DNA from: an uncultured Solirubrobacterales bacterium
GTDB taxonomy: Bacteria > Actinomycetota > Thermoleophilia > Solirubrobacterales > 70-9
Reading direction: 5' to 3'
Assembly (NCBI GenBank): GCA_963802935.1
Contig: CAWDKO010000009.1
Coordinates: 45,297-109,296, forward strand
Length of the DNA: 64,000 bases
In this document: positions 10,419-26,565 of the stretch, in pieces
How positions within the stretch are numbered: the first letter of the stretch is position 1
Layout: each line of letters opens with the position of its first letter
The notes under the pieces: generated by a model
Told to the model about the DNA's origin: nothing
The model's input: only the letters and a program-made list of their open reading frames with translations
Database searches by the model: none
Made by a program: the position numbers and the translations under genes

Positions 10419-10438
10419 ACCCTTAGTAGGTTCGCGCG

Positions 10439-11909: not shown

Positions 11910-13145
11910 TTGAGCCGACAGTTGCAAGATGCGAACCGCCTTGTTTATATTGCCTGGGTGCGCTTCGCGGGGGGCAGGACCTCGGGCATTCGGCCTTGGG
12001 CCGATCTGATGACCCGTATCCGGGCTCGCCAAGCGGAGATCGAAGCCGCGATCCTCACCCGTATCGTGGCGATCGAGGATCCCGCAGAGGTGACGGATCC
12101 AACCTATGTCGAGGGGTTGACCGCGGCGCTGGGCGCCGCGCTCGAGTATGGCTTCGCGGGAATCGAACGCAGCGAGGAGCGCACTACGCTGGTCCCGATC
12201 GCGGTGCTCGCCCAGGCTCGCCTTGCCGCACGAAACGGCGTCAGCCTCAACGCGGTGCTTCGTCGCTATCTTGCCGGCTCCACGATTGTCGCCAACTGCC
12301 TAATCGAGGAGGCCGAGTACGAGGACTGGAAAGGAGGAAAGACCCTCGGCCGGCTACTCCGCCGCCAAGCCGAGACCTTCGAGCGCCTGATCGTCGCGAT
12401 CGGCCGCGAGTACGAGCGCGCGGTCCAGGAGGATTCGCACGAGACTGCGGCTCAGCGTCGCCAGCGGCTGGTCGGGGAGCTGCTTGCGGGGAAGCGCTCC
12501 GAGGCTGCTGAGATTCGCTACGGCTTTGCGGCCTGGCATCTGGGTTTGTTCGCTGTAGGCTCTTCGGCCCTTGAGGCGATTGATGCCCTGGCGCGGTCCT
12601 TGGATGCTCATACGCTGCTTGTAGAGCAGGACGATGGGACTGTTTGGGCTTGGCTCGCTGGCGGCCGGGTGCTCGCCGGGGATTTCGAGCTCTCCCGCTA
12701 TCTCCGTCCGCACGCCCAGGTCGTACTCGCCATCGGCGAGGCCGCACCCGGGCTCGACGGCTGGCGACTCACCCATCGTCAGGCGGCAGCGGCGTTTACG
12801 ATCGCCAGGCAGGGCCAGGAGCCGCTCGTGCGCTACCGCGATGTTGCGTTGCTTGCCGCTGCGCAGCGCGATGAGCTTTTACGCGCGTCACTCGAGCAGG
12901 TCTTCCTGACGCCCCTTGTGGCTGAGCGCGACGGAGGCGCTGTGCTCCGCCTCACCCTTGAGGCCTACTTTGTCGCCGGGCGTAACGCTGCCTCGGCGGC
13001 GGCAGCGCTTGGTGTCAGCCGTCAGACAGTGAACAGCCGCCTGCGCAGCGCGGAGGAACGCCTCGGCTGCTCGCTGGAGAGCTGTGCTCCAGAGTTGCAG
13101 ACCGCCCTTCGCTTCGCTGCCCTTTCCAAACGTCAAGTCAATTGA
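11910..13145 (+). CDS. PucR/CdaR-family transcriptional regulator
   Basis: C-terminal PucR-type HTH (AGRNAASAAAALGVSRQTVNSRLRSAEERLG); true start may be ATG 12009 (MTRIRARQAE). Confidence 0.7.
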   Translation: MSRQLQDANRLVYIAWVRFAGGRTSGIRPWADLMTRIRARQAEIEAAILTRIVAIEDPAEVTDPTYVEGLTAALGAALEYGFAGIERSEERTTLVPIAVLAQARLAARNGVSLNAVLRRYLAGSTIVANCLIEEAEYEDWKGGKTLGRLLRRQAETFERLIVAIGREYERAVQEDSHETAAQRRQRLVGELLAGKRSEAAEIRYGFAAWHLGLFAVGSSALEAIDALARSLDAHTLLVEQDDGTVWAWLAGGRVLAGDFELSRYLRPHAQVVLAIGEAAPGLDGWRLTHRQAAAAFTIARQGQEPLVRYRDVALLAAAQRDELLRASLEQVFLTPLVAERDGGAVLRLTLEAYFVAGRNAASAAAALGVSRQTVNSRLRSAEERLGCSLESCAPELQTALRFAALSKRQVN

Positions 13146-13294
13146 GCACATAGGCAAGGCGCCGGACAAGATCTTGCGGCAGCATCGATAGGAGTTCCGG
13201 TTTCGGCCAATGGGAGGGCATTGTGAATGCAGTGAGGGCACGCCTTGTTGCGGGAGAAGGATCTCGCGCGTTTTTGGGCTTCAACGGGGGACGT

Positions 13295-16200
13295 ATGTGG
13301 CGGCAGTTCGCAGCGTTCGTCCTTCTCCTTGTGGCATCGACGGCCGCCTTGCCCCCAGGGCAGCCCTCGGCGGCGCCGGGTCCGTTGGCCACGTTTCCAG
13401 CGAAACGCTCCGGGCAGGAAGTGGCGGAATATGCCCGCACCTTCGACGTTTCTGCCCGGGAGGCGTCGGACACGCTGAACACACAGGAAAAAGGTGCGGG
13501 CGTCGTTGAAGTCCTTCGGCAGACGCTGGGCTCCCAATATGCAGGGATATGGTTCGACAATACGGCCGGCGAATTCGTCGTGCCTTTGGCCGCAAAAAGC
13601 GACGCAATCCGAGTTCAGCGTGCATTCAATGATCTCGGTCTAGCGCCCTCCACATTTCGTCTAGCTGACGCTCGCTTCACTTGGACGCAGCTGGAGAACA
13701 AGAAGGAACGGCTGCTCGAGCAATCCCTGTCAAAGCCTTTCCTGAACGGCGAAATCCAGGCATCGATCGACCCCAGGGCTAACCATGTCAGCGTGACGCT
13801 GTCCGGCACCGCGAATGAGGGGCGGTCAGCTGAGGTGGCAGATGCGGTGAATCAGTACGGTCCCGCAGCGGAAATCGAGAGGAAGAAGTTCAACCCCATT
13901 CCCGTGGCATGCTCTTTTGGCGACTGCGACCCGCCGCTGCGTGGGGGAGTCGCCATTACTCCCAAAAACTCGCCGGGAACCATGTGTTCGGCGGGCTTCA
14001 AGGCTCTGGGCAATGCGAACGGCAACAGATTCGTTTTGACCGCAGGCCATTGCACCTATGGAGTCTCTACATATCTCGCTCAGCCTGCTAGCAGCCCCTT
14101 TGAATCGAAAGAAATTGGACCGGTCGAAGCAACGTACACTAACGCGAGCGGCTACGACGTTGGCCTGATAAAAGCCAATGGGGGTTATTGGGATACCACG
14201 CCATGGCCGACCGAGGTGGTCTACTGGTCCCCGAAAGAATCTTATGAAGCGGTGAATCCTCATGTTGCCATTACCGCCGAAGCCTCCAGCTACATCGGAG
14301 AGTGGGCGTGTCACTCCGGCCAATCGTCGGGCACGTCGTGCGGGACGGTCAAAGAAGTCGATCTTGACCTGTCTTTTGAAACAGAAGGACGACCGCAGAT
14401 CCGTAACGACTTGAGCTTTGTGACCGGACCGGAACTCTGCATAGAAGGCGGTGACAGCGGTGGGCCGGTATTCACGGGGAACACCGCCTTGGGAATAACA
14501 TCCGCTATGGAGGGAGAACTTCCCATTCCCTGCGGGAATGGCGATTACTACAGTGAGATAACCGAAGACTCCGATCTGCTCGGTGTTCACGTCGCTTCAC
14601 GGGTCGGGGCACCTCCCTCCGCGATAACCGAAGGAGTCACATCCGTCGACTTCAGCCAGGCGACGATCAAAGGTACAGTCGATGCCAGTGGCATCCCGAC
14701 GACCTATTACTTCGAATATGGCAAAACCACCGCCTATGGCAGTGCGACCGGATCCGCAAGCGCCGGCTCGGGCTTCCTGCCCGGAACGTTCAGCAGCACC
14801 ATCGGGAGCCTCAGTCCCGGCACCAGCTACCACTACCGGATCGTCGCCACCAACTCTTCCGGCACCTCTTATGGCGCCGACCGTCAGTTCTCCACCCTGA
14901 GCCTCACCCCCAGCGAAGGGGAAGAGGACTACTCGCCCGGCCCACGCTCGACCGTCGACCCGACCAACAACTCGGTCAACGTCTTCTACCGCACCCCATC
15001 GGGCAGCCTCGGCCACCGCTGGCACGCGCCCTGGGAATCGGGCTGGGGCAGCGAGACGCTGGCGGGCTCACTGTCCTCTGAGCCCCATCTGATCGTCGAC
15101 AGGGACGGCGGTATCAACGTCTTCTACCGCACCCCCTCGGGCACCCTCGGCCACAACTGGTGGGAAGCCGGCGGCACCGGCTGGGGCTCGGAGAGCCTCG
15201 GCGGCTCGCTCGCGGCAAACGCCGAACCGCACGCGATCGTCGACTCCAACAAGGTCGTCAACGTCTTCTACCGCACCCCATCGGGCAGCCTCGGCCACCG
15301 CTGGCACGCGCCCTGGGAATCGGGCTGGGGCAGCGAGACGCTGGCGGGCTCGGTTGCCTCAGAACCGCACGCGATCGTCGACAAGGACGGCGGCATCAAC
15401 GTCTTCTACCGCACCCCCTCGGGCACCCTCGGCCACAACTGGTGGGAAGCCGGCGGCACCGGCTGGGGCTCGGAGAGCCTCGGCGGCTCGCTCGCGGCAA
15501 ACGCCGAACCGCACGCGATCGTCGAACCCAACAACTCGGTCCACGTCTTCTACCGCACCGCCTCGGGCAGCCTCGGCCACCGCTGGCACGCGCCCTGGGA
15601 ATCGGGCTGGGGCAGCGAGACGCTGGCGGGCTCACTCGACTCGAGCGCCGAACCGCACGCGATCGTCGACAAGAACGGCGGCGTCAACGTCTTCTACCGC
15701 ACCCCCTCGGGCACCCTCGGCCACAACTGGTGGGAAGTCGGCAACAACGTCTGGGGCTCGGAGGATCTCGGCGGCTCGCTCGCCTCTGAGCCGCACGCGA
15801 TCGTCGACCCGACCAACAACTCGGTCAACGTCTTCTACCGCACCCCATCGGGCAGCCTCGGCCACCGCTGGCACGCGCCCTGGGAATCGGGCTGGGGCAG
15901 CGAGACGCTGGCGGGCTCACTGTCCTCTGAGCCCCATCTGATCGTCGACAGGGACGGCGGTATCAACGTCTTCTACCGCACCCCCTCGGGCACCCTCGGC
16001 CACAACTGGTGGGAAGCCGGCGGCACCGGCTGGGGCTCGGAGAGCCTCGGTGGCTCGCTCGCACCGACCCCCCCGAGCGCCACCACCGGCGCCGCCAGCG
16101 GGGTCGGTGCAAACGAAGCCAAACTCGAAGGAACCGTGAACCCAAATGGCTCACCCACTAGCTACTACTTCGAATACGGTCCGACGACCTCTTATGGCTC

Positions 16201-16978
16201 AAAAGCGCCGGCCTCTGCGGCAGAAGCTGGCTACGGCACCGCCGCCGTCGCGGTCAGCCAGGCCTTGAGCGGTCTCTCCCCGAGCACGACCTACCACTAC
16301 CGACTGGTCGCCACTGGCCCGGAAGGCACTGCCACCGGTCAGGACAAAACCTTTGCAACCAAAGCGGCGACGGTCGCGAGCCAGCTGGCGGCGCTTCCCG
16401 TCACAGAGCCCTTTGACGGCAGCTCGGGATCGCTCGCCAACTTCGGCTCGAAATGGTCCACGCTGGGCTGGGCCGCGGGAGGCTCTCCCAAGGGCGCGGA
16501 CACCACCACGGGCTGGGGCCCGGTCAACGCCTTCTCGACCATCAACGGGGCTTACTTCAACACGTCAGTCTCCGCCGGCGGCCTGGGCTCTGCCGTGGTC
16601 GCGACCATGGCCGTCAACCCGGGCTTGACCGAACGCCACTTCTCGCTCTGGCTGAACATGTCGACCCCCGGCGGCACCAAAGCCGGCTATGAGCTGCGCT
16701 TCCAGAACACTGCTGCGAACGCCTACGAAGTCCGACTCCTCAAGTGGGTCGGCGCCAGCGAAGCCCAGCTCGCGTCCAAAACCGGCTATTCCTTCTCCAA
16801 CGGCAGCTCGTTCGCGCTCGTCGACCAGGGGGCCACTGTCTCGGCCTGGACCGACACCGGCTCTGGCTTCGCCCAACAGCTGAGCGCTGCCGACTCGGCG
16901 TTCTCGAGCGGATATGCAGGGCTCCAGGGCGCCGGGAGCACCACGCGCCTGAGGAACTTCAAGGCGGGGGGGATTTAG
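13295..16978 (+). CDS. secreted multidomain protein: alpha-lytic/streptogrisin-type S1 protease, Fn3-like, 8 Trp-rich propeller blades, Fn3-like, ConA/LamG-like C-terminal domain
   Basis: Signal peptide MWRQFAAFVLLLVASTAA; pro-region YAGIWFDNTAGEFVVP; triad LTAGHC / YDVGLI / GDSGGPV; YYFEYG..YG..Y.YR Fn3-like modules; 8 repeats NVFYRTPSG.LGH.W....GWGSE.L.GSL..EPH.IV. Confidence 0.8.
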   Translation: MWRQFAAFVLLLVASTAALPPGQPSAAPGPLATFPAKRSGQEVAEYARTFDVSAREASDTLNTQEKGAGVVEVLRQTLGSQYAGIWFDNTAGEFVVPLAAKSDAIRVQRAFNDLGLAPSTFRLADARFTWTQLENKKERLLEQSLSKPFLNGEIQASIDPRANHVSVTLSGTANEGRSAEVADAVNQYGPAAEIERKKFNPIPVACSFGDCDPPLRGGVAITPKNSPGTMCSAGFKALGNANGNRFVLTAGHCTYGVSTYLAQPASSPFESKEIGPVEATYTNASGYDVGLIKANGGYWDTTPWPTEVVYWSPKESYEAVNPHVAITAEASSYIGEWACHSGQSSGTSCGTVKEVDLDLSFETEGRPQIRNDLSFVTGPELCIEGGDSGGPVFTGNTALGITSAMEGELPIPCGNGDYYSEITEDSDLLGVHVASRVGAPPSAITEGVTSVDFSQATIKGTVDASGIPTTYYFEYGKTTAYGSATGSASAGSGFLPGTFSSTIGSLSPGTSYHYRIVATNSSGTSYGADRQFSTLSLTPSEGEEDYSPGPRSTVDPTNNSVNVFYRTPSGSLGHRWHAPWESGWGSETLAGSLSSEPHLIVDRDGGINVFYRTPSGTLGHNWWEAGGTGWGSESLGGSLAANAEPHAIVDSNKVVNVFYRTPSGSLGHRWHAPWESGWGSETLAGSVASEPHAIVDKDGGINVFYRTPSGTLGHNWWEAGGTGWGSESLGGSLAANAEPHAIVEPNNSVHVFYRTASGSLGHRWHAPWESGWGSETLAGSLDSSAEPHAIVDKNGGVNVFYRTPSGTLGHNWWEVGNNVWGSEDLGGSLASEPHAIVDPTNNSVNVFYRTPSGSLGHRWHAPWESGWGSETLAGSLSSEPHLIVDRDGGINVFYRTPSGTLGHNWWEAGGTGWGSESLGGSLAPTPPSATTGAASGVGANEAKLEGTVNPNGSPTSYYFEYGPTTSYGSKAPASAAEAGYGTAAVAVSQALSGLSPSTTYHYRLVATGPEGTATGQDKTFATKAATVASQLAALPVTEPFDGSSGSLANFGSKWSTLGWAAGGSPKGADTTTGWGPVNAFSTINGAYFNTSVSAGGLGSAVVATMAVNPGLTERHFSLWLNMSTPGGTKAGYELRFQNTAANAYEVRLLKWVGASEAQLASKTGYSFSNGSSFALVDQGATVSAWTDTGSGFAQQLSAADSAFSSGYAGLQGAGSTTRLRNFKAGGI

Positions 16979-16980
16979 GG
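14906..16980 (+). repeat. 2,075-bp direct repeat, copy 1 (3' part of the first protease gene)
   Basis: Aligns at a constant offset of 3,515 bp with 18421..20495; the translations differ at only three residues (SLSSEPHLIV vs SVASEPHAIV, DRDGG vs DRNGG). Confidence 0.9.
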
Positions 16981-17037
16981 ACATGGCTAATTTCGTCGGA
17001 CTATCGGCTGTCAACAAGCCATCGAGAGGGATCTGAG

Positions 17038-20000
17038 ATGAAAAGAGCACCGAACAACGTGGGGAGCAGCCGGTACAGGACGACGGTGGTCGGACTGGTG
17101 GCGTTGGTGGTTTCTCTCCCCTCTCTTTTTTCCTCGGCCGCGGCGTTGGCGAGTCCAAGGGCCTTTGACGTAGGCGATCTTGATGTACGCAGGGCTGAAG
17201 TACGCGAATACAAGCGCGAATTCGGAGTTTCCGAGTTGCACGCCGAAGAAAGCCTGGAAACCCAGCAGACCGGGCTTGACATGAACCTCGTCGCTCAGCT
17301 CGAATCACTGCTCGGCGCTGACTACGCGGGCGTTTGGTTCGATAATGCCACTGGGGACTTCGTCATTCCGGTGACTCCAGGGGCCGATCGTGACGCTGTT
17401 GTCCAGTCACTCTTCGCAGCGGGCCTTTCAGGGCATTTTCGCTTTACCCCAGCACAGGCAAGCTGGCGGCAGTTGCAGTCCACCCAGAACCAAATCAATG
17501 CGTCGCTGGGCGAGCAGCTTCGCCATGGCACGGTCGAGACCTCGCTCGACCCGCAGACCAATGCGGTACTGGTCAAAACCGCCGATGATATAGGATCAGC
17601 GGGCGCTGCTAGGGCCCAGAACCTTGCGCGGGGCTTTCAGGGTGAAGTCGAGCTCCGCGAGGGGACTGCAAGGGCCCTGAGCGGCCAGTTGGAGGGATGC
17701 AACGATGTCTTCTGCGGACCCTCACTCAGGGGTGGCGTACAGATCTTTGGTTCCAATGCCAAAAACTCCGAAGATTCTTGCACCGCAGGGTTTCGCGCGG
17801 TCAGTCCCACCGGTAACCGGTACCTGCTTACTGCTGGGCACTGTGTGGTGGAAATAGGGGAAGTCGAACCAGCCACGACGACTTGGTACAGCAAAAATGA
17901 CTCCCTTCAAACTTGGAAAATCGGCGACGTCGAGCAGGCAGTATCTCCGATTGATGATTGGGCGAAGATCAGTGTCAATGGGAGCGAATGGGACAAAGGC
18001 CAGTCGGCGAATGAAATCGTCTACTACGGAGAACCTATTTTCGATGCGAACGGGAAAATGATCGGCAAATCGCCTACGGTCGATTCGAACTATGCAATAA
18101 CCGGCGAATCCTCAAGTGTTAAAGGGACTTTTGTCTGTCACTCGGGAATCATGACCGGAACGACCTGTGGACAGGTGACTGCAGTTGGAGTGTCTCACAC
18201 CTGGGCGGGAAACTGGACTATCAATAACTTGAACGAAGCCGTTGGAGTCTGCAGTATCCCGGGTGACAGCGGCGGGCCCTGGTTCAGCGGACACATTGCG
18301 CTGGGCATGCACACTGGTTCGGTCGTTGAATCCAAAACATGCTCGGGCGCCCGGTTCTACACGGACATCACCAGGGCGACCAGTGCACTGGGGGTGTCGA
18401 TCGCCTCCACTGCCTTCCCAACCCCCAGCGAAGGGGAAGAGGACTACTCGCCCGGCCCACGCTCGACCGTCGACCCGACCAACAACTCGGTCAACGTCTT
18501 CTACCGCACCCCATCGGGCAGCCTCGGCCACCGCTGGCACGCGCCCTGGGAATCGGGCTGGGGCAGCGAGACGCTGGCGGGCTCGGTTGCCTCAGAACCG
18601 CACGCGATCGTCGACAGGGACGGCGGTATCAACGTCTTCTACCGCACCCCCTCGGGCACCCTCGGCCACAACTGGTGGGAAGCCGGCGGCACCGGCTGGG
18701 GCTCGGAGAGCCTCGGCGGCTCGCTCGCGGCAAACGCCGAACCGCACGCGATCGTCGACTCCAACAAGGTCGTCAACGTCTTCTACCGCACCCCATCGGG
18801 CAGCCTCGGCCACCGCTGGCACGCGCCCTGGGAATCGGGCTGGGGCAGCGAGACGCTGGCGGGCTCGGTTGCCTCAGAACCGCACGCGATCGTCGACAAG
18901 GACGGCGGCATCAACGTCTTCTACCGCACCCCCTCGGGCACCCTCGGCCACAACTGGTGGGAAGCCGGCGGCACCGGCTGGGGCTCGGAGAGCCTCGGCG
19001 GCTCGCTCGCGGCAAACGCCGAACCGCACGCGATCGTCGAACCCAACAACTCGGTCCACGTCTTCTACCGCACCGCCTCGGGCAGCCTCGGCCACCGCTG
19101 GCACGCGCCCTGGGAATCGGGCTGGGGCAGCGAGACGCTGGCGGGCTCACTCGACTCGAGCGCCGAACCGCACGCGATCGTCGACAAGAACGGCGGCGTC
19201 AACGTCTTCTACCGCACCCCCTCGGGCACCCTCGGCCACAACTGGTGGGAAGTCGGCAACAACGTCTGGGGCTCGGAGGATCTCGGCGGCTCGCTCGCCT
19301 CTGAGCCGCACGCGATCGTCGACCCGACCAACAACTCGGTCAACGTCTTCTACCGCACCCCATCGGGCAGCCTCGGCCACCGCTGGCACGCGCCCTGGGA
19401 ATCGGGCTGGGGCAGCGAGACGCTGGCGGGCTCACTGTCCTCTGAGCCCCATCTGATCGTCGACAGGAACGGCGGTATCAACGTCTTCTACCGCACCCCC
19501 TCGGGCACCCTCGGCCACAACTGGTGGGAAGCCGGCGGCACCGGCTGGGGCTCGGAGAGCCTCGGTGGCTCGCTCGCACCGACCCCCCCGAGCGCCACCA
19601 CCGGCGCCGCCAGCGGGGTCGGTGCAAACGAAGCCAAACTCGAAGGAACCGTGAACCCAAATGGCTCACCCACTAGCTACTACTTCGAATACGGTCCGAC
19701 GACCTCTTATGGCTCAAAAGCGCCGGCCTCTGCGGCAGAAGCTGGCTACGGCACCGCCGCCGTCGCGGTCAGCCAGGCCTTGAGCGGTCTCTCCCCGAGC
19801 ACGACCTACCACTACCGACTGGTCGCCACTGGCCCGGAAGGCACTGCCACCGGTCAGGACAAAACCTTTGCAACCAAAGCGGCGACGGTCGCGAGCCAGC
19901 TGGCGGCGCTTCCCGTCACAGAGCCCTTTGACGGCAGCTCGGGATCGCTCGCCAACTTCGGCTCGAAATGGTCCACGCTGGGCTGGGCCGCGGGAGGCTC

Positions 20001-20493
20001 TCCCAAGGGCGCGGACACCACCACGGGCTGGGGCCCGGTCAACGCCTTCTCGACCATCAACGGGGCTTACTTCAACACGTCAGTCTCCGCCGGCGGCCTG
20101 GGCTCTGCCGTGGTCGCGACCATGGCCGTCAACCCGGGCTTGACCGAACGCCACTTCTCGCTCTGGCTGAACATGTCGACCCCCGGCGGCACCAAAGCCG
20201 GCTATGAGCTGCGCTTCCAGAACACTGCTGCGAACGCCTACGAAGTCCGACTCCTCAAGTGGGTCGGCGCCAGCGAAGCCCAGCTCGCGTCCAAAACCGG
20301 CTATTCCTTCTCCAACGGCAGCTCGTTCGCGCTCGTCGACCAGGGGGCCACTGTCTCGGCCTGGACCGACACCGGCTCTGGCTTCGCCCAACAGCTGAGC
20401 GCTGCCGACTCGGCGTTCTCGAGCGGATATGCAGGGCTCCAGGGCGCCGGGAGCACCACGCGCCTGAGGAACTTCAAGGCGGGGGGGATTTAG
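17038..20493 (+). CDS. paralogous secreted S1 protease, 8-blade propeller, Fn3-like, ConA/LamG-like protein
   Basis: ATG 17038 after GAGAGGG; signal peptide VVGLVALVVSLPSLFSSAAALA; triad LTAGHC / DDWAKI / GDSGGPW; diverged protease half; C-terminal 690 aa nearly identical to the upstream gene. Confidence 0.8.
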   Translation: MKRAPNNVGSSRYRTTVVGLVALVVSLPSLFSSAAALASPRAFDVGDLDVRRAEVREYKREFGVSELHAEESLETQQTGLDMNLVAQLESLLGADYAGVWFDNATGDFVIPVTPGADRDAVVQSLFAAGLSGHFRFTPAQASWRQLQSTQNQINASLGEQLRHGTVETSLDPQTNAVLVKTADDIGSAGAARAQNLARGFQGEVELREGTARALSGQLEGCNDVFCGPSLRGGVQIFGSNAKNSEDSCTAGFRAVSPTGNRYLLTAGHCVVEIGEVEPATTTWYSKNDSLQTWKIGDVEQAVSPIDDWAKISVNGSEWDKGQSANEIVYYGEPIFDANGKMIGKSPTVDSNYAITGESSSVKGTFVCHSGIMTGTTCGQVTAVGVSHTWAGNWTINNLNEAVGVCSIPGDSGGPWFSGHIALGMHTGSVVESKTCSGARFYTDITRATSALGVSIASTAFPTPSEGEEDYSPGPRSTVDPTNNSVNVFYRTPSGSLGHRWHAPWESGWGSETLAGSVASEPHAIVDRDGGINVFYRTPSGTLGHNWWEAGGTGWGSESLGGSLAANAEPHAIVDSNKVVNVFYRTPSGSLGHRWHAPWESGWGSETLAGSVASEPHAIVDKDGGINVFYRTPSGTLGHNWWEAGGTGWGSESLGGSLAANAEPHAIVEPNNSVHVFYRTASGSLGHRWHAPWESGWGSETLAGSLDSSAEPHAIVDKNGGVNVFYRTPSGTLGHNWWEVGNNVWGSEDLGGSLASEPHAIVDPTNNSVNVFYRTPSGSLGHRWHAPWESGWGSETLAGSLSSEPHLIVDRNGGINVFYRTPSGTLGHNWWEAGGTGWGSESLGGSLAPTPPSATTGAASGVGANEAKLEGTVNPNGSPTSYYFEYGPTTSYGSKAPASAAEAGYGTAAVAVSQALSGLSPSTTYHYRLVATGPEGTATGQDKTFATKAATVASQLAALPVTEPFDGSSGSLANFGSKWSTLGWAAGGSPKGADTTTGWGPVNAFSTINGAYFNTSVSAGGLGSAVVATMAVNPGLTERHFSLWLNMSTPGGTKAGYELRFQNTAANAYEVRLLKWVGASEAQLASKTGYSFSNGSSFALVDQGATVSAWTDTGSGFAQQLSAADSAFSSGYAGLQGAGSTTRLRNFKAGGI

Positions 20494-20495
20494 GG
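18421..20495 (+). repeat. 2,075-bp direct repeat, copy 2 (3' part of the second protease gene)
   Basis: See copy 1; identity starts at ACCCCCAGCGAAGGGGAAGAGG and ends 2 nt after the stop codon. Confidence 0.9.
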
Positions 20496-20638
20496 CGACA
20501 GAGGCACTCCCCCAGCGACAAACGAGAGGCCGAGGGCTCGCTGCCGCGAGGGGTGTGGCCGAGGGGCAATGTTGGTTGGTTTGGATCGGCAGCGACCCGA
20601 GGGCCACAGGTACCAAGCAGGTACTAAGGGGGAATTTG

Positions 20639-20682
20639 GATGCCGGAGGAGGGACTCGAACCCCCGACACGCGGATTATGAT
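20639..20682 (-). repeat. att-type direct repeat: duplicated 3' half of tRNA-Met
   Basis: GATGCCGGAGGAGGGACTCGAACCCCCGACACGCGGATTATGAT is identical to 26490..26533 (tRNA nt 33-74 plus 2 flanking nt). Confidence 0.9.
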
Positions 20683-20858
20683 GCTGCCGCAGCGGTTGCC
20701 GGGGTTTGCGGCTGTCAGAGCCTTTTGGCGCTAGAGAGCCAATCCGGCGGGTCGGGCCTCTCCTCGTTTTCGGCTATTTCCGGGTGTCTCCTTGCCACCC
20801 CCTTGCCACCCTGCGCTTTTAGGGGCGAAAGCTCAAGCAATCTGAGAGTCTTCCGCCA

Positions 20859-21788
20859 ATGACGAGCAGGCTGACGATCTATTACGGGCAGATATGGCTA
20901 GAGCAGGCGACGCTGTTTTCCGAGTACCCACTTCGGGATGCCGTTGAAGGAGCGGGGCCGGTCAACCGCTACAACCACGATTGGCTGATCGGCAACCTCT
21001 CGGTCGACGAAGGGCGACAAATCCTTGTTGGGAAGCTGGGGTACCCGGAGACTGAACAGCGAACGCGAGAGGACTACGACCCCGCCGAGCAGGCATTTGT
21101 TGAGCAGAATGTGGAGGTGCCCGACGCGGCTTCGGCCGCGTTTGCGCTCAACTATGCATCGGGGGCGCTGGCGTTCGAAGGGACTGACCGCATCGGGCCA
21201 AGGGGCTTCGTCAACCATTTGGTCGCTCTTATGAGAACTGTGGACGAGGGCTTCAAAGGACAGCTAATCCGTATTGCCACCGAGTACCGCGAGTTCCTTG
21301 CGGCGGTGGACAAGGTCACCCGGGTTAGCTTTGAGGTGATCCCCACGAACCCCCGGGATCGCAACATTTTCAAACCGCTGGACGTGGGCATGAAGGCGGC
21401 GAATGCCTCTCGCGAGCGAGTGACCCTAGAGAACGATGAAGGACTCGTCATGCAGCCTCCTGATAGCCGGGACGAAACGACCGACAACCCCGCCATCATG
21501 GGAATAGAGATGAATGACGAGGGCTATGGCAAGGGCTACAAAATCGATGCCAAACGCCAAGGCCGGGACTATCGCTTCGACTCTGAGCAGGGCGGCGGCC
21601 TGCTTCGGGATGTAGTTGAGGGCGCACCAGAAGATGGCGAGTACCGGACGAGTGCGCTGGTCGAGCATCTTGAAGAGAAACGTCTCGATGAGGAAGGGAT
21701 CGGCGACCGCCAGTCTGAGACGGACGAGCCATCTGCGGAGGCGGGAGGGGACGAGCCGCCTGCTGAGGCCGCGCAGGGAGAGGGCTAG
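20859..21788 (+). CDS. hypothetical soluble protein, 309 aa, acidic C-terminal tail; no family recognised
   Basis: Long ORF within the island; stop is 3 nt before the start of the next ORF (operon). Confidence 0.6.
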   Translation: MTSRLTIYYGQIWLEQATLFSEYPLRDAVEGAGPVNRYNHDWLIGNLSVDEGRQILVGKLGYPETEQRTREDYDPAEQAFVEQNVEVPDAASAAFALNYASGALAFEGTDRIGPRGFVNHLVALMRTVDEGFKGQLIRIATEYREFLAAVDKVTRVSFEVIPTNPRDRNIFKPLDVGMKAANASRERVTLENDEGLVMQPPDSRDETTDNPAIMGIEMNDEGYGKGYKIDAKRQGRDYRFDSEQGGGLLRDVVEGAPEDGEYRTSALVEHLEEKRLDEEGIGDRQSETDEPSAEAGGDEPPAEAAQGEG

Positions 21789-21791
21789 CTT

Positions 21792-22385
21792 GTGGCGGTG
21801 ACTTCGCACCGCGACAAGGCTGTGACGCCGCCTGAGGAGGGCGGACAGGATTTCTACGAAGACACGCGCTTCTGGAAGGCGGCGCGCGCGTATGGATTGG
21901 ATCAGTTGATCCTGACCTGGGGCGTTGGAGTCGCGCTCGCGTGTGCAGCGGGCGTTCTGTTTCTTTTCCTCCACGGCGATCTGCCTACTAGCGGCGTCAA
22001 AGCTTTGGCCGTGTCCTACGTCAGCCTGGGGGCCGCGCTATTTGGCATCGTGCTTGCGGGGTTCGCCGTAGTCGCGGCGTTCTTTGACCGCGACTACGTT
22101 GCCAAGCTCCGTGAAGCTGGGACGCTAGGGGACTCGCTATTCGGTTTCTGGTGGGTGGCTGCAATAACGGTTCTAGCCGTGCTTGCCAGCGTTGGACTCA
22201 CTGTCGCCGCATTCGCAGGGGCATCGAAGCCAGTAATGGCTGTTGCGCTCGGGATCGCGACCACGCTATTCGTCGCCAGCCTGGGGGAGGCGCTGTCGCT
22301 CGTTGGCACCATCATGCGGCACGCTCTCTACCGGAGCGAGCTGGCGCGACGCGATGACATTCGCATTACGCAGCCAAAGCCATAG
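21792..22385 (+). CDS. hypothetical integral membrane protein, 197 aa, about 4 TM helices
   Basis: GTG 21792; hydrophobic segments GVGVALACAAGVLFLFL, ALAVSYVSLGAALFGIVLAGFAVVAAFF, FGFWWVAAITVLAVLASVGLTVAAFA, VMAVALGIATTLFVASLGEALSLVG. Confidence 0.6.
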   Translation: MAVTSHRDKAVTPPEEGGQDFYEDTRFWKAARAYGLDQLILTWGVGVALACAAGVLFLFLHGDLPTSGVKALAVSYVSLGAALFGIVLAGFAVVAAFFDRDYVAKLREAGTLGDSLFGFWWVAAITVLAVLASVGLTVAAFAGASKPVMAVALGIATTLFVASLGEALSLVGTIMRHALYRSELARRDDIRITQPKP

Positions 22386-22639
22386 GCCTCGGCTGCTCCA
22401 TCTCTATGGCCTCGTCCAAAAAGGCGGCGCTTCCCACGCCTGCGTCCATCAGATGGATGTAGGTCTTGAGGGTGAAGCCGGGATCGGCATGGCCTAGCCA
22501 AGCCTGAACCTGCTTCACGTTCCGGCCCGCCTCAAAAAGCAAGCTGGCGCAGGTGTGGCGGAACGTGTGGAAGGACACGGTTGACCGCGTTCTTCTCTTG
22601 CCCTTGACCTCCACCTCTACCTTGAACCCGGCCCCGATG
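22366..22639 (-). pseudogene. tyrosine recombinase/integrase, C-terminal fragment only
   Basis: FHTFRHTCASLL (HxxR box) and LGHADPGFTLKTYIH (catalytic Tyr box); reading frame runs into the IS3 end at 22640; no N-terminal part on the other side of the IS. Confidence 0.7.
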
Positions 22640-22668
22640 TGAGCCGGACCAGGTCCACGGAGACTTGT

Positions 22669-23577
22669 TTAGTTGGATCCAATCTTCATCTTGAGGGAGA
22701 TCAGTTGATCCCTCTGTCGAACGTATAGGCCCTCGAACTCAGCGGGTGAGACGTCGCCGAGGGATTCGTGCAGGCGCTCGTTGTTGAACCAGGAGACGTA
22801 TTCGACGACGGCCAGCTCCAGCTGCGAGCGAGAGCGCCAGACCCGGTCGGCGATCAGCTCGGTCTTGAAGGTGTCGACGAAGCTCTCGGCCATCGCGTTG
22901 TCATAGGCATCGCCGACGGCGCCGACCGAGGCGAGGACGCCGTGGTCGGTGAGCGTCTGGGTGTAGTCGGCCGAGGTGTATTGAGAGCCGCGGTTGGTGT
23001 GGGCCACGAGTTGGAAGTCGGCGCCGGGCTCGCGTTGGCCCAGTGCCATCCGCAGCGCGTCGAGCACCAGGTCGGTGCGCATGTGGGAGGCCAGCTGCCA
23101 GCCGACGACCTTGCGCGAGAAGGCGTCGATCACGAAGGAGAAGAACGAAGCGCCCTCCCAGGAGCGCAAGTAGGTGAAGTCCCCGACCCAGAGACGGTCG
23201 GGGCCTGGCGCTGTGAAGTCGCGCTGGACCAGGTCGGGGCGGCGCAGGGCCGAGGGGTCCGGTGTTGTCGTGCGCCAGGGGCGCCCACGGCGCTTGGCGC
23301 CTTGGATCCCGGCCTCTCGCATCAGCCGGGCCACCCGGCCGCGGCCGACCTCCTCGCCGGCGCGCTGCAGGGCGATCCACATCCGCCGGTAGCCGTAGGC
23401 GCAGTAGTTGGCCTCGTGGATCTCGGCGATCAGCTCGAGCAGGCGCTCGTCCTCGAGGGCGCGAGCGGAGCGCTTGTCCTTGGCGCGCTGGTAGTAGGCG
23501 GAGGCCGACACCTCCGGGGTCTTGCAGATCGGCTCGACCCCGAAGCGCTCGCGATGCTCCTCGATGTAGGAGCTCAC
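22669..23577 (-). CDS. IS3-family transposase OrfB (DDE integrase core)
   Basis: YGYRRM...PDRLWVGDFTYL...HTNRGSQYTS...YDNAMAESF... rve/DDE domain motifs. Confidence 0.85.
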   Translation of the reverse strand: MSSYIEEHRERFGVEPICKTPEVSASAYYQRAKDKRSARALEDERLLELIAEIHEANYCAYGYRRMWIALQRAGEEVGRGRVARLMREAGIQGAKRRGRPWRTTTPDPSALRRPDLVQRDFTAPGPDRLWVGDFTYLRSWEGASFFSFVIDAFSRKVVGWQLASHMRTDLVLDALRMALGQREPGADFQLVAHTNRGSQYTSADYTQTLTDHGVLASVGAVGDAYDNAMAESFVDTFKTELIADRVWRSRSQLELAVVEYVSWFNNERLHESLGDVSPAEFEGLYVRQRDQLISLKMKIGSN

Positions 23578-23876
23578 TTCGTTCGGCGTGGGTCGAGCTC
23601 GGCGGCGAAAAAGGCAGACGCCGACTTCAAGATGTCGTTGGCCCTGCGCAGCTCGCGCACCTCACCGCGTAGGGCCTTCAGCTCCTCGCGCTCGGAGCTG
23701 TCGAGCAGGTCCTTGCGTTTGCCCTCATCGGCTTCGGCCTGGCGCACCCACTTGCGCAGGGTCTCGGGGTGGATCCCGAGGTCGCGCGCTACGTGAGCGA
23801 TGGGGCGGCCGGAGTCGGCGACCATCCGGGCCCCGCGATCGAGCAGCTCATCGGGGTATTTCTTCTGTCGTGGCAT
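23574..23876 (-). CDS. IS3-family transposase OrfA (HTH)
   Basis: MPRQKKYPDELLDRGARMV...LRKWVRQAE...LRRANDILKSASAFFAAELD is typical IS3 OrfA. Confidence 0.8.
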   Translation of the reverse strand: MPRQKKYPDELLDRGARMVADSGRPIAHVARDLGIHPETLRKWVRQAEADEGKRKDLLDSSEREELKALRGEVRELRRANDILKSASAFFAAELDPRRTK

Positions 23877-24018
23877 GGCTTGGGAGTTCCCTTCTTCCAG
23901 GTAGGAATCCTGGTTTCTGGGTCTCCGTCAAACCTGGTCCGGCTCACCTTGCTGGCGGCTTTGCGCTTGGCGTCGTCGGGCATTCCACGGAGCCTAACCC
24001 CTGATCCCAGTCCCGAAG

Positions 24019-24642
24019 CTACAGGCCAAGCTCCTGCGCGTGGGCAAATGACTCTGCGAACTTCTTCGATCGGTGACTGAAATCAAGCTCTCCCATGGTG
24101 TTTCGATCAGTCCAGTAGTAGCCCTCCAGCTGGCCTACCGGCTCACCCGCAATGTCGAGCTTAAAGCTCCCGTGGTGCACCTCGCTACGCTCACGGACAG
24201 AGGCTCGCGGCGTGTTTCTGTACTGCGCGACCAACTGGTATTGCCCGCAGCCGTCATCCTCGATCGTTGCAGTGGTCGAGCATGACTTTGACTCTTTGGT
24301 AATCAGATTGGCGGTCACGCTCCAAAACGTCTGGCGGATGACCAAGTAGACCTCCGGGTCGGGGTCCCTGCGTTGGCCCGTCTCGGGGTTGATCCAGTTT
24401 GAGGCGAGTCGGCCACGCCAGGTGCCACGCAGGTCGGGCCGCTTACTAAGCCCGCGGCCAACTTTTGGAAGTCGCCATAGGAAGTGGTCGAAGGCGAGAA
24501 CGAGCAGACCGGCCACTGAACTGGCTGCTCCGATAGGGGCGAACAGTTCAGTGGTCGGCAGGCCGCGAGCCAGAAAGGCGATCAGATAGACGCCTGCAAC
24601 GACAAGGACAATGGCCTGAATGAAGACCCGGGACGGTCGCAT
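24019..24642 (-). CDS. CBASS effector, Cap15-like (N-terminal 2 TM plus beta-strand-rich C-terminal domain)
   Basis: ATG overlaps the cyclase stop (TGATG); two TM helices (VFIQAIVLVVAGVYLIAFLA, IGAASSVAGLLVLAFDHFLW) then GTWRGRL.S...IRQTFWSV...YRNTP...HHGSFKL...LEGYYWTDR pattern. Confidence 0.6.
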   Translation of the reverse strand: MRPSRVFIQAIVLVVAGVYLIAFLARGLPTTELFAPIGAASSVAGLLVLAFDHFLWRLPKVGRGLSKRPDLRGTWRGRLASNWINPETGQRRDPDPEVYLVIRQTFWSVTANLITKESKSCSTTATIEDDGCGQYQLVAQYRNTPRASVRERSEVHHGSFKLDIAGEPVGQLEGYYWTDRNTMGELDFSHRSKKFAESFAHAQELGL

Positions 24643-25562
24643 CACTCGAAGCCGACGTAGTTCCAGGCCTTTGAAGCGAAGTCGTGGGCGTCTTGGTAGC
24701 TCCAATTCTGGCCGCTCCAGAACAGGAACTTGATCGCATTCGCCTCAAGCCAATCGTCTGAGGTCACGCAGCCGTCGTTCAGCGTCTCGTTGAAGATGTG
24801 CGCAAGGGCGGCTCGAACGCGGGCTTTCCAAGTTGCGCCGTCGAATTTCGAGTTTGGCACGTTCCAGACTGAGGACTCGATCAAAAAGGAGGGAACCTCT
24901 TTGATGATGCCCTCGTCAACCATCTCGTTCTCCAAGCGCTTCAAGATGCGCACGACACGCTTGTAGCGACGCGAGGTTGCGTCGTTCTTTCTCGTGCCCT
25001 GTTCGAGGTGCTGCTTCGGGTAGTTAACGATGCGCTCGGCGGGATTCCGGTCGTTGTAGAGCCGGATGCCATCGTTATAGCCCGTGCGGCTGGTCCAGGT
25101 GCGCTCGGTAACACAGGGAACTACGTCGGCCGGCAGGCGGCCCGTGCTCTCTGCGACCCGAATCGCCTTGCTTCCACGGTCGACTTCCCCTGCACTGAAA
25201 TACGCGATGAGGGCGTGCTCGACGTCATCCTTGAAACCGGCCAGCGTGGCGTCGCCCTCATACGGCGTCACGCCGACATCGGCCATGGTCAGCCCCTCCG
25301 CCGCATGGATGAAGCGGTTCTTGAAGAACGTCGTCAACTCGACCGCGATGTCGACGTCGCTGTCGCGGACGACATTGGTGAAGTTGGGGTAAGACCCCTT
25401 CGCGTAGACCTCGAAGTCGTACTTGCTGAGCCGATCACTTGCTCGGAGGGCGTCTCCGATCGCGCGACAGGTGCGTCTGTACTTCTCTTCCTCGCTGTCG
25501 GAGGCTTTGCCTTTCCAACTCGTGAATCTGGCCTCCCAGTCACGGGCTACCTGCGTTGACAT
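24642..25562 (-). CDS. CBASS cGAS/DncV-like nucleotidyltransferase (CD-NTase, SMODS family)
   Basis: KGSYPNFTNVVRDSDVDIAV (GS...DxD), third acidic residue LPADVVPC, C-terminal SFLIESSVWNVP; ATG 25562 after GGAGA. Confidence 0.8.
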   Translation of the reverse strand: MSTQVARDWEARFTSWKGKASDSEEEKYRRTCRAIGDALRASDRLSKYDFEVYAKGSYPNFTNVVRDSDVDIAVELTTFFKNRFIHAAEGLTMADVGVTPYEGDATLAGFKDDVEHALIAYFSAGEVDRGSKAIRVAESTGRLPADVVPCVTERTWTSRTGYNDGIRLYNDRNPAERIVNYPKQHLEQGTRKNDATSRRYKRVVRILKRLENEMVDEGIIKEVPSFLIESSVWNVPNSKFDGATWKARVRAALAHIFNETLNDGCVTSDDWLEANAIKFLFWSGQNWSYQDAHDFASKAWNYVGFE

Positions 25563-25786
25563 TGATCTCCCTTCGCGCTTCCGCCCGTGACTGCCCATGC
25601 CTGCCAGCTGATAATTCCGCCGACACTCTTGTTAACTTTCAACTTCACGAGGTTCGCGTTGATTTCTAGGTTGGTACGCATCAGAACCTCTAAGGCTACG
25701 ATTTCTCAGCGGCGGAAAGATCACTCGTCACTGGCCGCAAATTGCGGCTTTCTCGGGGGCGTTTTGAATCGAGGTATCCTTTAGCC

Positions 25787-25978
25787 ATGGCGCACGCCAC
25801 CAAAGCCGACAATGCAGCTACCGAGCGTCAAGCAGCGATAGAGCGGACCCGAGGCATGTTCGCCCACCTGGCGCCCGGCGAAAGCTTGGCCGACGAGCTA
25901 ATCGCTGGTCGGCGCGCGGAAGCCCGCGCGGAAGATCGCGAGGCGGCCGACGAAGCCCGGCGCCTCCGTGGCAAGTAG
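25787..25978 (+). CDS. vapB: VapB-type antitoxin
   Basis: 63-aa ORF overlapping the PIN gene start; C-terminal LADELIAGRRAEARAEDRE resembles VapB tails. Confidence 0.55.
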   Translation: MAHATKADNAATERQAAIERTRGMFAHLAPGESLADELIAGRRAEARAEDREAADEARRLRGK

Positions 25979-26387
25979 CGAGACGCCGGCATCGGTCCTC
26001 GATGCCTCGGCGCTGCTTGCTCATCTCAATGAGGAGAAAGGCGCATCGGTTGTCCGGCGCGCCATGGCGGACGGCGCAGCTATCAGCATCGTCAATTGGA
26101 TAGAGGTCCTGTCGAAAATCGCCCAACGTGGCGAAGACCCTGAACTTGCCGCTGCCGAGATGAAGGGCGCCGGACTCATCGGCAGTGTCGTGACCATCGA
26201 GGCCGTGACCGAACAGGATTCGATCGAAATTGCCCGCTTGCGGCCCTTGACCAAGAAGCAAGGACTTTCACTCGCGGATCGCGCTTGCTTGGCCCTTGCA
26301 ATTCGTCTTGACGTTCCTACCGTGACCGGCGATCGGGACTGGCAGGCCCTTCCCGGGGTAGGCGTTGCGGTCAAGCTCATCCGCTGA
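25968..26387 (+). CDS. vapC: PIN-domain ribonuclease toxin
   Basis: VLDASALLA...NWIEV...SLADRACLALA...TGDRDW carry the conserved acidic PIN residues. Confidence 0.8.
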   Translation: MASSETPASVLDASALLAHLNEEKGASVVRRAMADGAAISIVNWIEVLSKIAQRGEDPELAAAEMKGAGLIGSVVTIEAVTEQDSIEIARLRPLTKKQGLSLADRACLALAIRLDVPTVTGDRDWQALPGVGVAVKLIR

Positions 26388-26491
26388 TGCGGTGGTTCTT
26401 AAGGCCAGACCCTTGCCACATTCCTTGCCACCCCCGTCAAATTGGAGGCCAGCGGAGGGCCGGATCGGCTGCATTCCGCGCTGCCAAGCGA

Positions 26492-26565
26492 TGCCGGAGG
26501 AGGGACTCGAACCCCCGACACGCGGATTATGATTCCGCTGCTCTAACCAGCTGAGCTACTCCGGC
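26492..26565 (-). tRNA. tRNA-Met (anticodon CAT; tRNA-Ile2/lysidine not excluded), 74 nt, CCA not encoded
   Basis: Hand-folded cloverleaf: GCCGGAG-TA-GCTC-AGCTGGTTA-GAGC-A-GCGGA-ATCATAA-TCCGC-GTGTC-GGGGG-TTCGAGT-CCCTC-CTCCGGC-A. Confidence 0.9.

Follow-up and report, generated by a model that had tools for sequence, protein, structure and literature searches.

A coupled gene pair at the end of a tRNA-Met island

The window, that is, the whole stretch of 64,000 nucleotides analysed from an uncultured Solirubrobacterales bacterium, harbors two genes, here termed A and B, at one end of an island bordering on a tRNA-Met gene (Table 1). The original prediction had described them as two coupled ORFs, and their coordinates, including the 3-nt gap that separates them, were confirmed exactly. 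A Shine-Dalgarno-like sequence, GGGAGAGGG, is located inside the 3' end of A and suggests that translation of B is coupled to that of A. Comparison with related loci revealed that B directly follows A in all 10 independent close loci, and that both genes, when measured against three homologues, exhibit a dN/dS of 0.065–0.081 at a dS of 1.0–2.6, reflecting strong purifying selection. The intergenic region upstream of A falls within a 79% DNA match to one homologous locus, L007. A sigma-70 consensus was not found upstream of A, a result that is uninformative here because the scan does not cover actinobacterial promoters.

Table 1. Positions of the gene pair and of the surrounding features within the window.
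Feature	Position	Strand	Description
Distal att repeat	20639-20690	-	Displaced tRNA-Met 3' half; marks the island end beside A
Intergenic region upstream of A	20691-20858	+	168 nt; presumed promoter (inferred)
Gene A	20859-21788	+	ATG start, 309 aa, stop TAG at 21786-21788; putative sensor, DUF4747 family by profile comparison
Shine-Dalgarno-like GGGAGAGGG for B	21776-21784	+	Inside A 3' end; read from the sequence
Gene B	21792-22385	+	GTG start, 197 aa, four transmembrane helices; putative membrane effector
Tyrosine integrase C-terminal remnant	22366-22647	-	Pfam Phage_integrase, E 1.7e-10; converges on B and overlaps B 3' end
IS3-family insertion sequence	22640-23946	-	rve and HTH_Tnp_1 domains; truncates the integrase; context, not part of the module
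Type I CBASS	24019-25598	-	CD-NTase (24642-25598) and Cap15 2TM effector (24019-24705); neighbor, not part of the module
Candidate VapBC pair	25742-25978, 25968-26387	+	PIN-like reading from a sequence motif only
Intact tRNA-Met, integration target	26492-26565	-	ARAGORN; proximal att repeat (26490-26541) formed by its 3' half

The tRNA-Met island, likewise part of the original prediction, proved to be real. Besides the intact tRNA-Met gene, a repeat search identified a 52-nt direct repeat with 94% identity between its two copies, which delimit an island of 5.85 kb, with the pair lying 169 nt inside the distal copy. The same att repeat, perfect over 53 nt, bounds a homologous 10.85-kb element in L007. 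The integrase remnant that converges on B shares 87% identity with residues 294–372 of its L007 counterpart, an intact integrase of 392 aa, and the homology of the window to L007 ends at position 22638. The IS3-family element carries the terminal inverted repeats TGAGCCGGACCAGGT and ACCTGGTCCGGCTCA. Beyond this insertion, which took the place of the element's former interior, lie the CBASS genes, as identified by PADLOC (cyclase, E 1.2e-93; 2TM effector, E 1.3e-64) and Pfam (Cap15_CD_rec, E 8e-21). The integrase remnant, the IS and CBASS named in the original prediction were thus recovered, whereas its VapBC was not, the candidate pair having no match in PADLOC or among PDB sequences. PADLOC had no match for A or B either.

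Profile comparisons place A in the DUF4747 family

The physicochemical profile of A agrees with the predicted soluble protein having an acidic tail. A lacks hydrophobic segments (19-residue Kyte-Doolittle maximum of 0.9), carries a net charge of -28 and has a pI of 4.45, or 4.66 without the tail; this tail, an acidic stretch of ~30 residues, is disordered in the model (pLDDT <50 at residues 279–284 and 289–309). The claim that A cannot be assigned to any family did not hold. Precomputed Pfam matches of the unmarked class, defined by E <= 1e-5, assign PF15931 (DUF4747; version PF15931.11) to 26 of the 28 close homologues of A, and the exact-sequence cluster of A itself, P0001, is among the carriers of this match; precomputed PF15931 matches are also present in the distant relatives of A that were looked up. 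The older PF15931.10 model did not match A or four of its homologues in hmmscan, even at E <= 10. A composition-filter artefact was rejected as the cause of this miss, as removal of the tail did not yield a match either. Still, the older model can be reached transitively, leading from the A profile via distant proteins to PF15931.10 matches: a search with the A profile retrieved 371 distant representatives at E <= 1e-3, mostly 260–300 aa in size (250–320 aa in most of the 150 relatives listed), and 10 of the 60 representatives scanned matched PF15931.10 with a best E of 8.6e-11. Aligning the A profile to the 60 distant representatives with hhalign gave an E of 3.8e-46 over 265 columns. In 65 diverse members, A among them, the N164-P165 dipeptide never varies, and conservation reaches 90% or more at G58, F95 and G222-Y223. 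According to these profile data, A is a DUF4747-family (PF15931) protein.

Profile and Foldseek searches, which had been proposed as a check on the original prediction, thus led to DUF4747 and to an RdgC-like predicted fold (see below), whereas direct scans of A and B against the family libraries of Pfam, NCBIfam, PADLOC and PHROGs returned nothing usable. The A and B profiles found no match among PDB sequences, tblastn of A against phages produced one spurious match only, and with the distant member P0097 as query, neither phages nor plasmids gave a tblastn match. As judged from these searches, the family of A is too divergent for single-sequence comparisons. Close relatives of A form a clade seen exclusively in uncultured Solirubrobacterales-like Actinobacteria, comprising 28 protein clusters, three GTDB genomes and no IMG/VR contig; for B, 48 homologous clusters were obtained. 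Loci related to A that were found with the A profile included three from GTDB, six from metagenomes and none from viral contigs.

A membrane protein that accompanies DUF4747 proteins

B is a four-helix inner-membrane protein. In line with the four hydrophobic helices and short cytoplasmic tail of the original prediction, hydropathy analysis revealed four hydrophobic segments, and the AlphaFold2 model (pLDDT 83.5) contains helices at residues 43–60, 66–96, 112–141 and 146–189. The lysine and arginine residues of B cluster at the N-terminus, in the loop between helices 2 and 3 and at the C-terminus, a distribution that points to both ends being cytoplasmic, with a predicted C-terminal tail of ~25 residues. 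In the alignment of B homologues, the motifs FFDRxY, FWWVA and MRHxLYR are conserved.

We also compared the B profile with the genes located downstream of three distant DUF4747 genes (P0097, P0088 and P0149). All three are followed by an overlapping gene, and two of these overlapping genes can be aligned with the B profile by hhalign (L021, P 7e-17; L012, P 0.0036; shuffled controls reached a maximum score of 17). Because B thus has homologues downstream of distant DUF4747 genes, the A-B pair is a single old module, whose two components, by these alignments, diverged together. The designation as a new module can thus not be maintained, the pair belonging to the known family of DUF4747 plus 4-TM proteins. 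In fold searches, the best viral matches of B and of A come from one and the same phage, Siphoviridae sp. ctylc9.

The predicted fold of A is that of RdgC

When the AlphaFold2 model of A (pLDDT 82.7) was compared to solved structures with Foldseek, the top PDB matches, extending over the whole length, were the RdgC structures 2OWL and 2OWY (E 4e-4, probability 1.0, 343 columns). According to the model, A folds like RdgC, which forms rings and binds DNA non-specifically. The two proteins are also similar in size (303 aa for RdgC) and in having an acidic pI. However, the TM-score of only 0.38, at a sequence identity of 6–9%, indicates that the domain arrangement of RdgC differs from that of the A model, and rdgC is a stand-alone chromosomal gene without a membrane partner, whereas A always occurs with B. 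At the profile level, hhalign detected no significant similarity to RdgC, with P values of 0.4–0.9 for the E. coli protein. The RexA structure 8TWQ, although present in the PDB library, was outside the top 50 Foldseek matches of A. The strong acidity of A is unusual for a DNA binder, yet RdgC itself has a pI of 5.3.

The pair occupies a cargo slot of small tRNA-integrating elements

In homologous loci, the pair sits as cargo with the att site on one side and the integrase gene on the other, in elements inserted in tRNA-Met (L007) or tRNA-Arg (L014) genes, and its neighbors encode an integrase, a relaxase, helix-turn-helix regulators and hypothetical proteins of small integrative elements. Moreover, the pair outlives the element: in the window the integrase is cut by the IS, L025 consists of the pair alone beside a tRNA-Met, and L030 contains integrase fragments. 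The original prediction had called for a test of whether homologues of the pair co-occur and are enriched next to known defence genes. Co-occurrence was seen throughout the 10 independent loci, whereas enrichment was not, as PADLOC identified only one TIR protein among 66 neighbors. What the loci have in common is a cargo position in small tRNA-integrating elements, flanked by att site and integrase, rather than a defence island, and the CBASS neighbor is specific to the window. By the same count, association with defence islands was rejected as a general trait of the family. The predicted role of a sensor and membrane effector in abortive infection accords with how the literature reads such an architecture, while the defence-island argument offered for it applies to the window only.

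Comparison with Rex-like exclusion systems

Pairs of a DUF4747 protein and a 4-TM protein are treated in published work as RexAB-like abortive infection, phage defence by such pairs has been reported for Sbash, CarolAnn and Butters, and a "DUF4747/CarolAnn prophage system" is listed among immune operons in a 2026 EMBO J paper (PMC13373217). The published link of Sbash/CarolAnn/Sejanus-type proteins to DUF4747 is a weak HHpred match. The combination of a soluble and a membrane protein is common to lambda RexAB, Sbash gp30/31, CarolAnn gp44/43 and Butters gp30/31, with RexB, gp31 and gp43 having four transmembrane helices, as B does. With the DUF4747 family, A shares the invariant NP and the near-invariant GY motif, and distant members likewise have a coupled downstream multi-TM gene that is a B homologue; a Salmonella example from the literature, 297 aa followed by 201 aa, is of the same size. 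A differs from the family in being too divergent for PF15931.10 and in exceeding typical members by ~30 aa, owing to the acidic tail.

Lambda rexA and rexB resemble the pair in that the gene of a soluble protein precedes a 4-TM gene on an integrating mobile element and in similar protein sizes (279 and 144 aa vs 309 and 197 aa). The RexA crystal structure is reported to be RdgC-like (PMC11077077), and the A model matches RdgC. In contrast to the acidic A, RexA is basic (pI 8.6), and whereas rexAB is co-transcribed with the cI repressor gene, the A-B pair is flanked by att and int and lacks a repressor in the vicinity. The models of RexA (PF15969, PADLOC PDLC02339) and RexB (PF15968, PADLOC PDLC02340) did not match A or B, while lambda RexA (E 1e-97 to 1e-110) and RexB (E 8.6e-61 to 8.5e-92) were matched as controls. 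Similarly, hhalign against profiles of four RexA and three RexB sequences was not significant (P 0.5 and 0.11, respectively).

Sbash gp30/gp31, CarolAnn gp44/gp43 and Sejanus gp46/gp45 share with the pair an actinobacterial host range, an acidic-tailed soluble protein whose gene overlaps or is coupled to a downstream 4-TM gene, and proximity to the integration cassette in a temperate element. Their soluble partners are larger (356–372 aa vs 309 aa for A), and defence has been shown experimentally for Sbash and CarolAnn. A 37-sequence gp44 profile aligned neither to the A profile (P 0.47) nor to a 152-sequence DUF4747 profile (P 0.2) in hhalign, a test that also misses the relation of gp44 to RexA (P 0.71) and is insensitive at such distance. 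None of 35 CarolAnn gp44 relatives has a precomputed PF15931 match, which places the experimentally tested systems outside the Pfam family of A. Comparisons by hhalign of the A and DUF4747 profiles with Butters gp30, and of the B profile with RexB, gp43, gp31, Sejanus gp45 and Butters gp31, were not significant, the scores of B against gp43 and gp31 lying within the shuffle range. Among viral fold matches of B (Foldseek, BFVD), Sbash gp31 ranked tenth, a suggestive position that lacks significance (E 0.95, TM 0.37/0.42). Finally, PADLOC v2.0.0 has no match for CarolAnn gp44/gp43 or Butters gp30, so that its silence on A-B is uninformative with regard to CarolAnn-type systems.

A putative exclusion module and its alternatives

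Taken together, we favor the view that A-B is probably a RexAB-like two-gene phage-exclusion (abortive-infection) module that was carried as att-int cargo by a since-decayed tRNA-Met-integrating element. As the comparisons gave no significant sequence link to the RexA/B, CarolAnn, Sbash or Butters proteins, we infer the Rex-like mechanism by analogy. Following lambda RexA/RexB and Sbash gp30/gp31, A, probably a dimer, would be inactive until an infecting phage yields a trigger, which could be a phage protein or else an intermediate consisting of DNA or of DNA and protein. Triggered A would then engage the cytoplasmic loop and tail of B, with their conserved FFDRxY and MRHxLYR motifs, and B would open or disrupt the membrane, causing membrane potential and ATP to collapse and the infection to abort. 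One may speculate that the acidic tail autoinhibits A.

A serious but less probable variant is that the core DUF4747 plus 4-TM modules form an independent family, analogous but not homologous to RexAB and CarolAnn, in which a strongly acidic sensor of RdgC fold would work with a membrane effector that evolved alongside it. The Solirubrobacterales clade would then be what survived, in domesticated form, of tRNA-integrated elements undergoing decay. If so, the trigger and the effector chemistry could differ from the Rex model. A further interpretation concerns the balance between the two proteins. An excess of RexA over RexB is said, in work of Parma et al. from 1992, to set off the response without infection. 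A and B might constitute an addiction or stabilization module of toxin-antitoxin type, with B as membrane toxin restrained by A, such that loss of the element or an imbalance of A and B kills the cell and phage defence is at most a side effect. The tight coupling of the genes and the survival of the pair beside a truncated integrase, alone in L025 and with fragments in L030 would fit, as would the proposal that changed RexA:RexB ratios affect exclusion (PMC7542560). However, a defence gene that benefits the host is equally expected to persist after decay, and the tested Sbash and CarolAnn systems gave phage-specific defence rather than a stabilization phenotype; we thus regard addiction as unlikely, although it and defence are not mutually exclusive.

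We judge it somewhat less likely still that A, as a DNA-binding protein akin to RdgC and RexA, regulates the life cycle of the element by controlling recombination, RecA activity or excision beside int and att, in the way RexA tunes the lambda CI/Cro switch, with B doing no more than anchor or modulate it. The predicted RdgC-like fold of A and the constant position of the pair between att site and integrase are compatible with such a role, and RexA acts on the lambda bistable switch without RexB and binds DNA non-specifically (PMC11077077). But a DNA regulator would not need an obligate 4-TM partner that co-diverges across distant members, purifying selection on the pair stays strong at loci whose integrase is destroyed or missing, and A is strongly acidic. 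High-GC DNA, here at 61–64%, is rich in long spurious ORFs, of which the overlapping ORFs are an example, and might in principle have produced A and B as chance frames or as decaying remnants without function. Such an origin is refuted by selection (dN/dS of 0.07–0.08 at the above dS) and by conservation, with 28 and 48 homologous clusters, confident fold models for both proteins and a gene order kept in all loci, and we attach virtually no weight to it.

Implications for the DUF4747 family

These results change the label of the locus from a new defence module to a divergent actinobacterial member of the Rex-like DUF4747 plus 4-TM family. The validated systems, CarolAnn, Sbash, Butters and lambda, lie outside the Pfam family proper, and our literature search found no experimental test of a core PF15931 pair; as apparently no core DUF4747 pair has been tested, the family should be a reasonable experimental target. 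The RdgC fold predicted for DUF4747 proteins and reported for RexA lends support, at the level of the fold, to the connection that the literature drew from weak HHpred matches. Moreover, because the membrane partner is itself conserved and has, by profile alignment, diverged together with the DUF4747 protein, a two-gene detection rule may become possible.

Two coupled genes in a tRNA-Met island

The gene pair A and B resides in a 5.85-kb island that is bounded by 52-nt direct repeats of the tRNA-Met 3' half and adjoins the intact tRNA gene, with A starting 169 nt inside the distal repeat. Both ORFs match the originally predicted positions exactly. The gap between them measures 3 nt, and judging from the sequence, a Shine-Dalgarno-like run for B (GGGAGAGGG) lies inside the end of A. 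Protein A contains no hydrophobic segment, carries a net charge of -28 (pI 4.45) and ends in an acidic stretch of ~30 residues that is disordered in the model. For B, hydropathy analysis revealed four hydrophobic segments, and AlphaFold2 yielded a confident model (pLDDT 83.5) with helices at residues 43-60, 66-96, 112-141 and 146-189. Lys and Arg residues cluster at the N-terminus, in the helix 2-3 loop and in the C-terminal tail, which predicts a cytoplasmic location for both ends of B. When A and B were compared with three homologues, dN/dS amounted to 0.065-0.081 at dS 1.0-2.6. Given these low ratios and the number of homologous protein clusters (28 for A, 48 for B), A and B are real genes under purifying selection. 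The possibility that they are chance ORFs was refuted by the selection data.

Features in and around the tRNA-Met island (window coordinates)
Feature	Position	Strand	Description
Large ORF 1	13223-16978	+	~1250 aa
Large ORF 2	16744-20493	+	~1250 aa
Direct repeat, distal copy	20639-20690		52 nt
A	20859-21788	+	ORF, ATG start, 309 aa
B	21792-22385	+	ORF, GTG start, 197 aa
IS3-family insertion sequence	~22640-23946	- (orfs)	orfA 23574-23876, orfB 22669-23577
Type I CBASS, two genes	24019-25598	-	CD-NTase (318 aa) and Cap15-type 2TM effector
Candidate VapBC	25742-26387	+	78-aa ORF, then overlapping 139-aa ORF
Direct repeat, second copy	26490-26541		52 nt
Intact tRNA-Met	26492-26565	-	ARAGORN

B is followed by a convergent integrase remnant, the IS3-family element, the type I CBASS and the candidate VapBC. 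The remnant represents the C-terminal part of a tyrosine integrase, being 87% identical to the integrase end of L007, a related contig, and the IS3-family element has terminal inverted repeats (TGAGCCGGACCAGGT / ACCTGGTCCGGCTCA). PADLOC detected the CBASS cyclase (E 1e-93) and the Cap15 2TM effector (E 1e-64), while the CD-NTase had no Pfam match at E <= 0.01. The effector has a cyclic-dinucleotide receptor domain and overlaps the CD-NTase by 64 nt. In the candidate VapBC, which had no match in PADLOC or PDB sequences, the 139-aa ORF starts VLDASALLAHL and looks PIN-like.

Two adjacent large ORFs in regions of lower GC lie immediately beyond the island boundary. Their frames overlap at 16744-16978, and in the second, a trypsin-like protease domain is accompanied by numerous DUF346 repeats with the pattern VFYRTPSGxLGHxW. 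GC content is 0.58-0.65 at 13000-15000 and 61000-64000 of the window, as compared to ~0.70 elsewhere, and further horizontal acquisitions may account for both regions.

Family and predicted fold of protein A

Direct scans of A and B against Pfam (local model PF15931.10), NCBIfam, PADLOC and PHROGs returned no match. In contrast, 26 of 28 close A homologues in a large protein database, including the exact A sequence, carry a precomputed match to PF15931 (DUF4747), which the contig listings give in the unmarked class (E <= 1e-5). This discrepancy arises because the precomputed matches relied on a different model version, PF15931.11. A profile of A1, the alignment of A's clade, retrieved 371 proteins at E <= 1e-3 from 1.84 billion representatives, mostly of 260-300 aa. 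Ten of 60 such relatives match the local PF15931.10 (best E 8.6e-11), and hhalign aligned A1 with these 60 over 265 columns (probability 100%, E 3.8e-46). All 65 diverse members compared have an NP motif, and conservation of a GY motif reaches at least 90%. The precomputed matches, profile link, hhalign alignment and shared motifs together place A, on sequence grounds, as a divergent DUF4747 protein, and the original prediction, in which it could not be assigned to any family, was overturned on this point. Its close clade is rare, occurring in three GTDB genomes, all from uncultured Actinobacteria or Solirubrobacterales, and no IMG/VR contig was found for it.

The AlphaFold2 model of A (pLDDT 82.7, pTM 0.76) had its best Foldseek matches among solved structures in RdgC (2owl and 2owy; E 4e-4 and 5e-4, probability 1.0), with an alignment spanning the whole length at TM 0.38. 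Predicted viral structures gave matches to five uncharacterised phage proteins, 277-322 aa in length, at E values between 1e-12 and 1e-8. Lambda RexA binds DNA non-specifically, and its crystal structure (8TWQ) is reported to be RdgC-like (PMC11077077). This structure was absent from the top 50 matches of A, so the link between A and RexA via an RdgC-like fold is indirect.

Co-divergence of A and B

B lies downstream of A in all 10 independent loci with a close A homologue, in line with the co-occurrence that the original prediction put forward as a check. Moreover, three distant DUF4747 genes that could be placed on contigs are each followed by an overlapping gene. The downstream partner on contig L021 matched the B profile with P 7e-17 over 157 columns, and that on L012 with P 0.0036 (score 24.9; the highest-scoring of 20 shuffles reached 17.2). 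The partner/B alignments share the motifs FAV..F.D at the end of helix 2 and F.W at the start of helix 3. The presence of B homologues downstream of distant DUF4747 genes indicates that A and B diverged together as a single module. Rather than a new module, as had been proposed, the pair belongs to an already known DUF4747 plus four-TM kind. The best viral fold match of B, A0A8S5S8H0 (probability 0.99, E 0.12), and that of A, A0A8S5S8L2, derive from one genome, Siphoviridae sp. ctylc9; Sbash gp31 ranked tenth among the viral matches of B and was not significant (E 0.95).

The pair as cargo of small integrative elements

Window positions 20639-22638 share 79% DNA identity with 9789-11783 of L007, from a Solirubrobacterales MAG, and the far flank with tRNA-Met matches as well. 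L007 harbors an intact 10.85-kb element (9785-20685) in the same tRNA-Met, bounded by perfect 53-nt repeats and ordered A, B, integrase (392 aa), small gene, TrwC relaxase and helix-turn-helix regulators. A second contig, L014, has an 11.1-kb element with perfect 44-nt tRNA-Arg repeats, starting with tRNA-Arg, A, B and integrase. According to these layouts, the pair occupies the att-int slot of small integrative, probably mobilisable elements with different integrases. The homology to L007 ends at 22638, where the IS3-family element sits in the integrase gene; by this comparison, the island is a decayed copy of a ~10.85-kb L007-type element, with IS3, CBASS and the candidate VapBC in place of its interior. 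Decay has gone further at other loci: in metagenome contigs, the pair stands alone ~550 nt from tRNA-Met (L025, 1-2243) or next to integrase fragments (L030, 3441-6592), and L004 has no integrase. The pair seems to persist longer than the element that carried it in.

When 66 proteins encoded near the pair at five homologous loci were analysed with PADLOC, most matches were generic (helix-turn-helix and helicase) and one was a TIR protein. Hence the defence-island context is not conserved. Whereas PADLOC and domain matches confirmed CBASS, IS and integrase remnant as neighbours in the window, the anticipated enrichment beside known defence genes did not extend to these loci. The TIR protein, a 246-aa fusion with a helix-turn-helix domain from an Actinobacteria MAG (L004, 16055-16795), is encoded 4.5 kb downstream of A-B and has the only clear defence-type domain among the 66 neighbours. 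In a further element with a homologous pair, ARAGORN reported a tRNA-like gene with an unassigned four-base anticodon (ggcg) adjoining a serine recombinase (L016, 17370-17445).

Comparison with Rex-like systems

Three actinobacteriophage papers report prophage-mediated phage defence involving Sbash gp30/31, CarolAnn gp44/43 and Butters gp30/31, each comprising a 4-TM protein preceded by a soluble protein whose HHpred match to DUF4747 is weak. For Butters, the main antagonist is gp30, which gp31 is proposed to modulate. These pairs are likened to lambda RexA/RexB, with a proposed mechanism in which infection activates the soluble protein and this, in turn, opens an ion channel formed by the membrane protein, leading to depolarisation, a fall in ATP and aborted infection. 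The functional guess in the original prediction, which paired a soluble with a small membrane protein in abortive infection, is thus in keeping with the literature. Furthermore, a 2026 EMBO J paper lists a "DUF4747/CarolAnn prophage system" among immune operons under CapK/CapS control (PMC13373217), and in a Salmonella genome report, a DUF4747 gene of 297 aa precedes a hypothetical gene of 201 aa.

Whereas the Pfam and PADLOC Rex models matched lambda RexA/RexB at E 1e-61 to 1e-110, they gave no match to A or B, and hhalign comparisons with lambda RexA/RexB were not significant, setting the pair outside these sequence families. Likewise, A falls outside the CarolAnn/Sbash gp44 family by sequence (hhalign P 0.2-0.47, 37-sequence profile), PF15931 was found in none of 35 gp44 relatives, and scores of B against gp43 and gp31 were within shuffle noise. 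The gp44 family and RexA are treated as homologues by the field. As hhalign without secondary structure also misses this link (P 0.71), the negatives reflect distance and not absence of relationship. Direct homology linking A-B to a system with experimental data is not demonstrated. The likeness in architecture, B topology and mobile-element setting stands, and the predicted RdgC-like fold of A may be a further shared feature.

Rex-like abortive infection or exclusion is the best-supported reading, and we consider it fairly probable. Family, predicted fold and topology, coupling, co-divergence, purifying selection and cargo position form its observed basis, from which we infer trigger, A-B contact, channel activity and defence phenotype. 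In such a system, RdgC-fold A, probably dimeric, would sense a signal specific to infection, be it DNA, DNA-protein or protein, and act on B at its conserved cytoplasmic loop and tail; B would then dissipate the membrane potential. Survival of the pair during element decay is also consistent with a toxin-antitoxin-like addiction module of the element, a role that we regard as unlikely, though it would not be exclusive of defence. A regulator of life cycle or recombination, comparable to RexA acting on the lambda switch, is quite improbable, considering the obligate, co-evolving membrane partner and the retention of the pair after integrase loss.

In contrast to the weakly related actinophage systems, the core DUF4747 family does not seem to have been tested by experiment in the literature found. 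The predicted RdgC-like fold of A supports, through RdgC, a link between DUF4747 and RexA.
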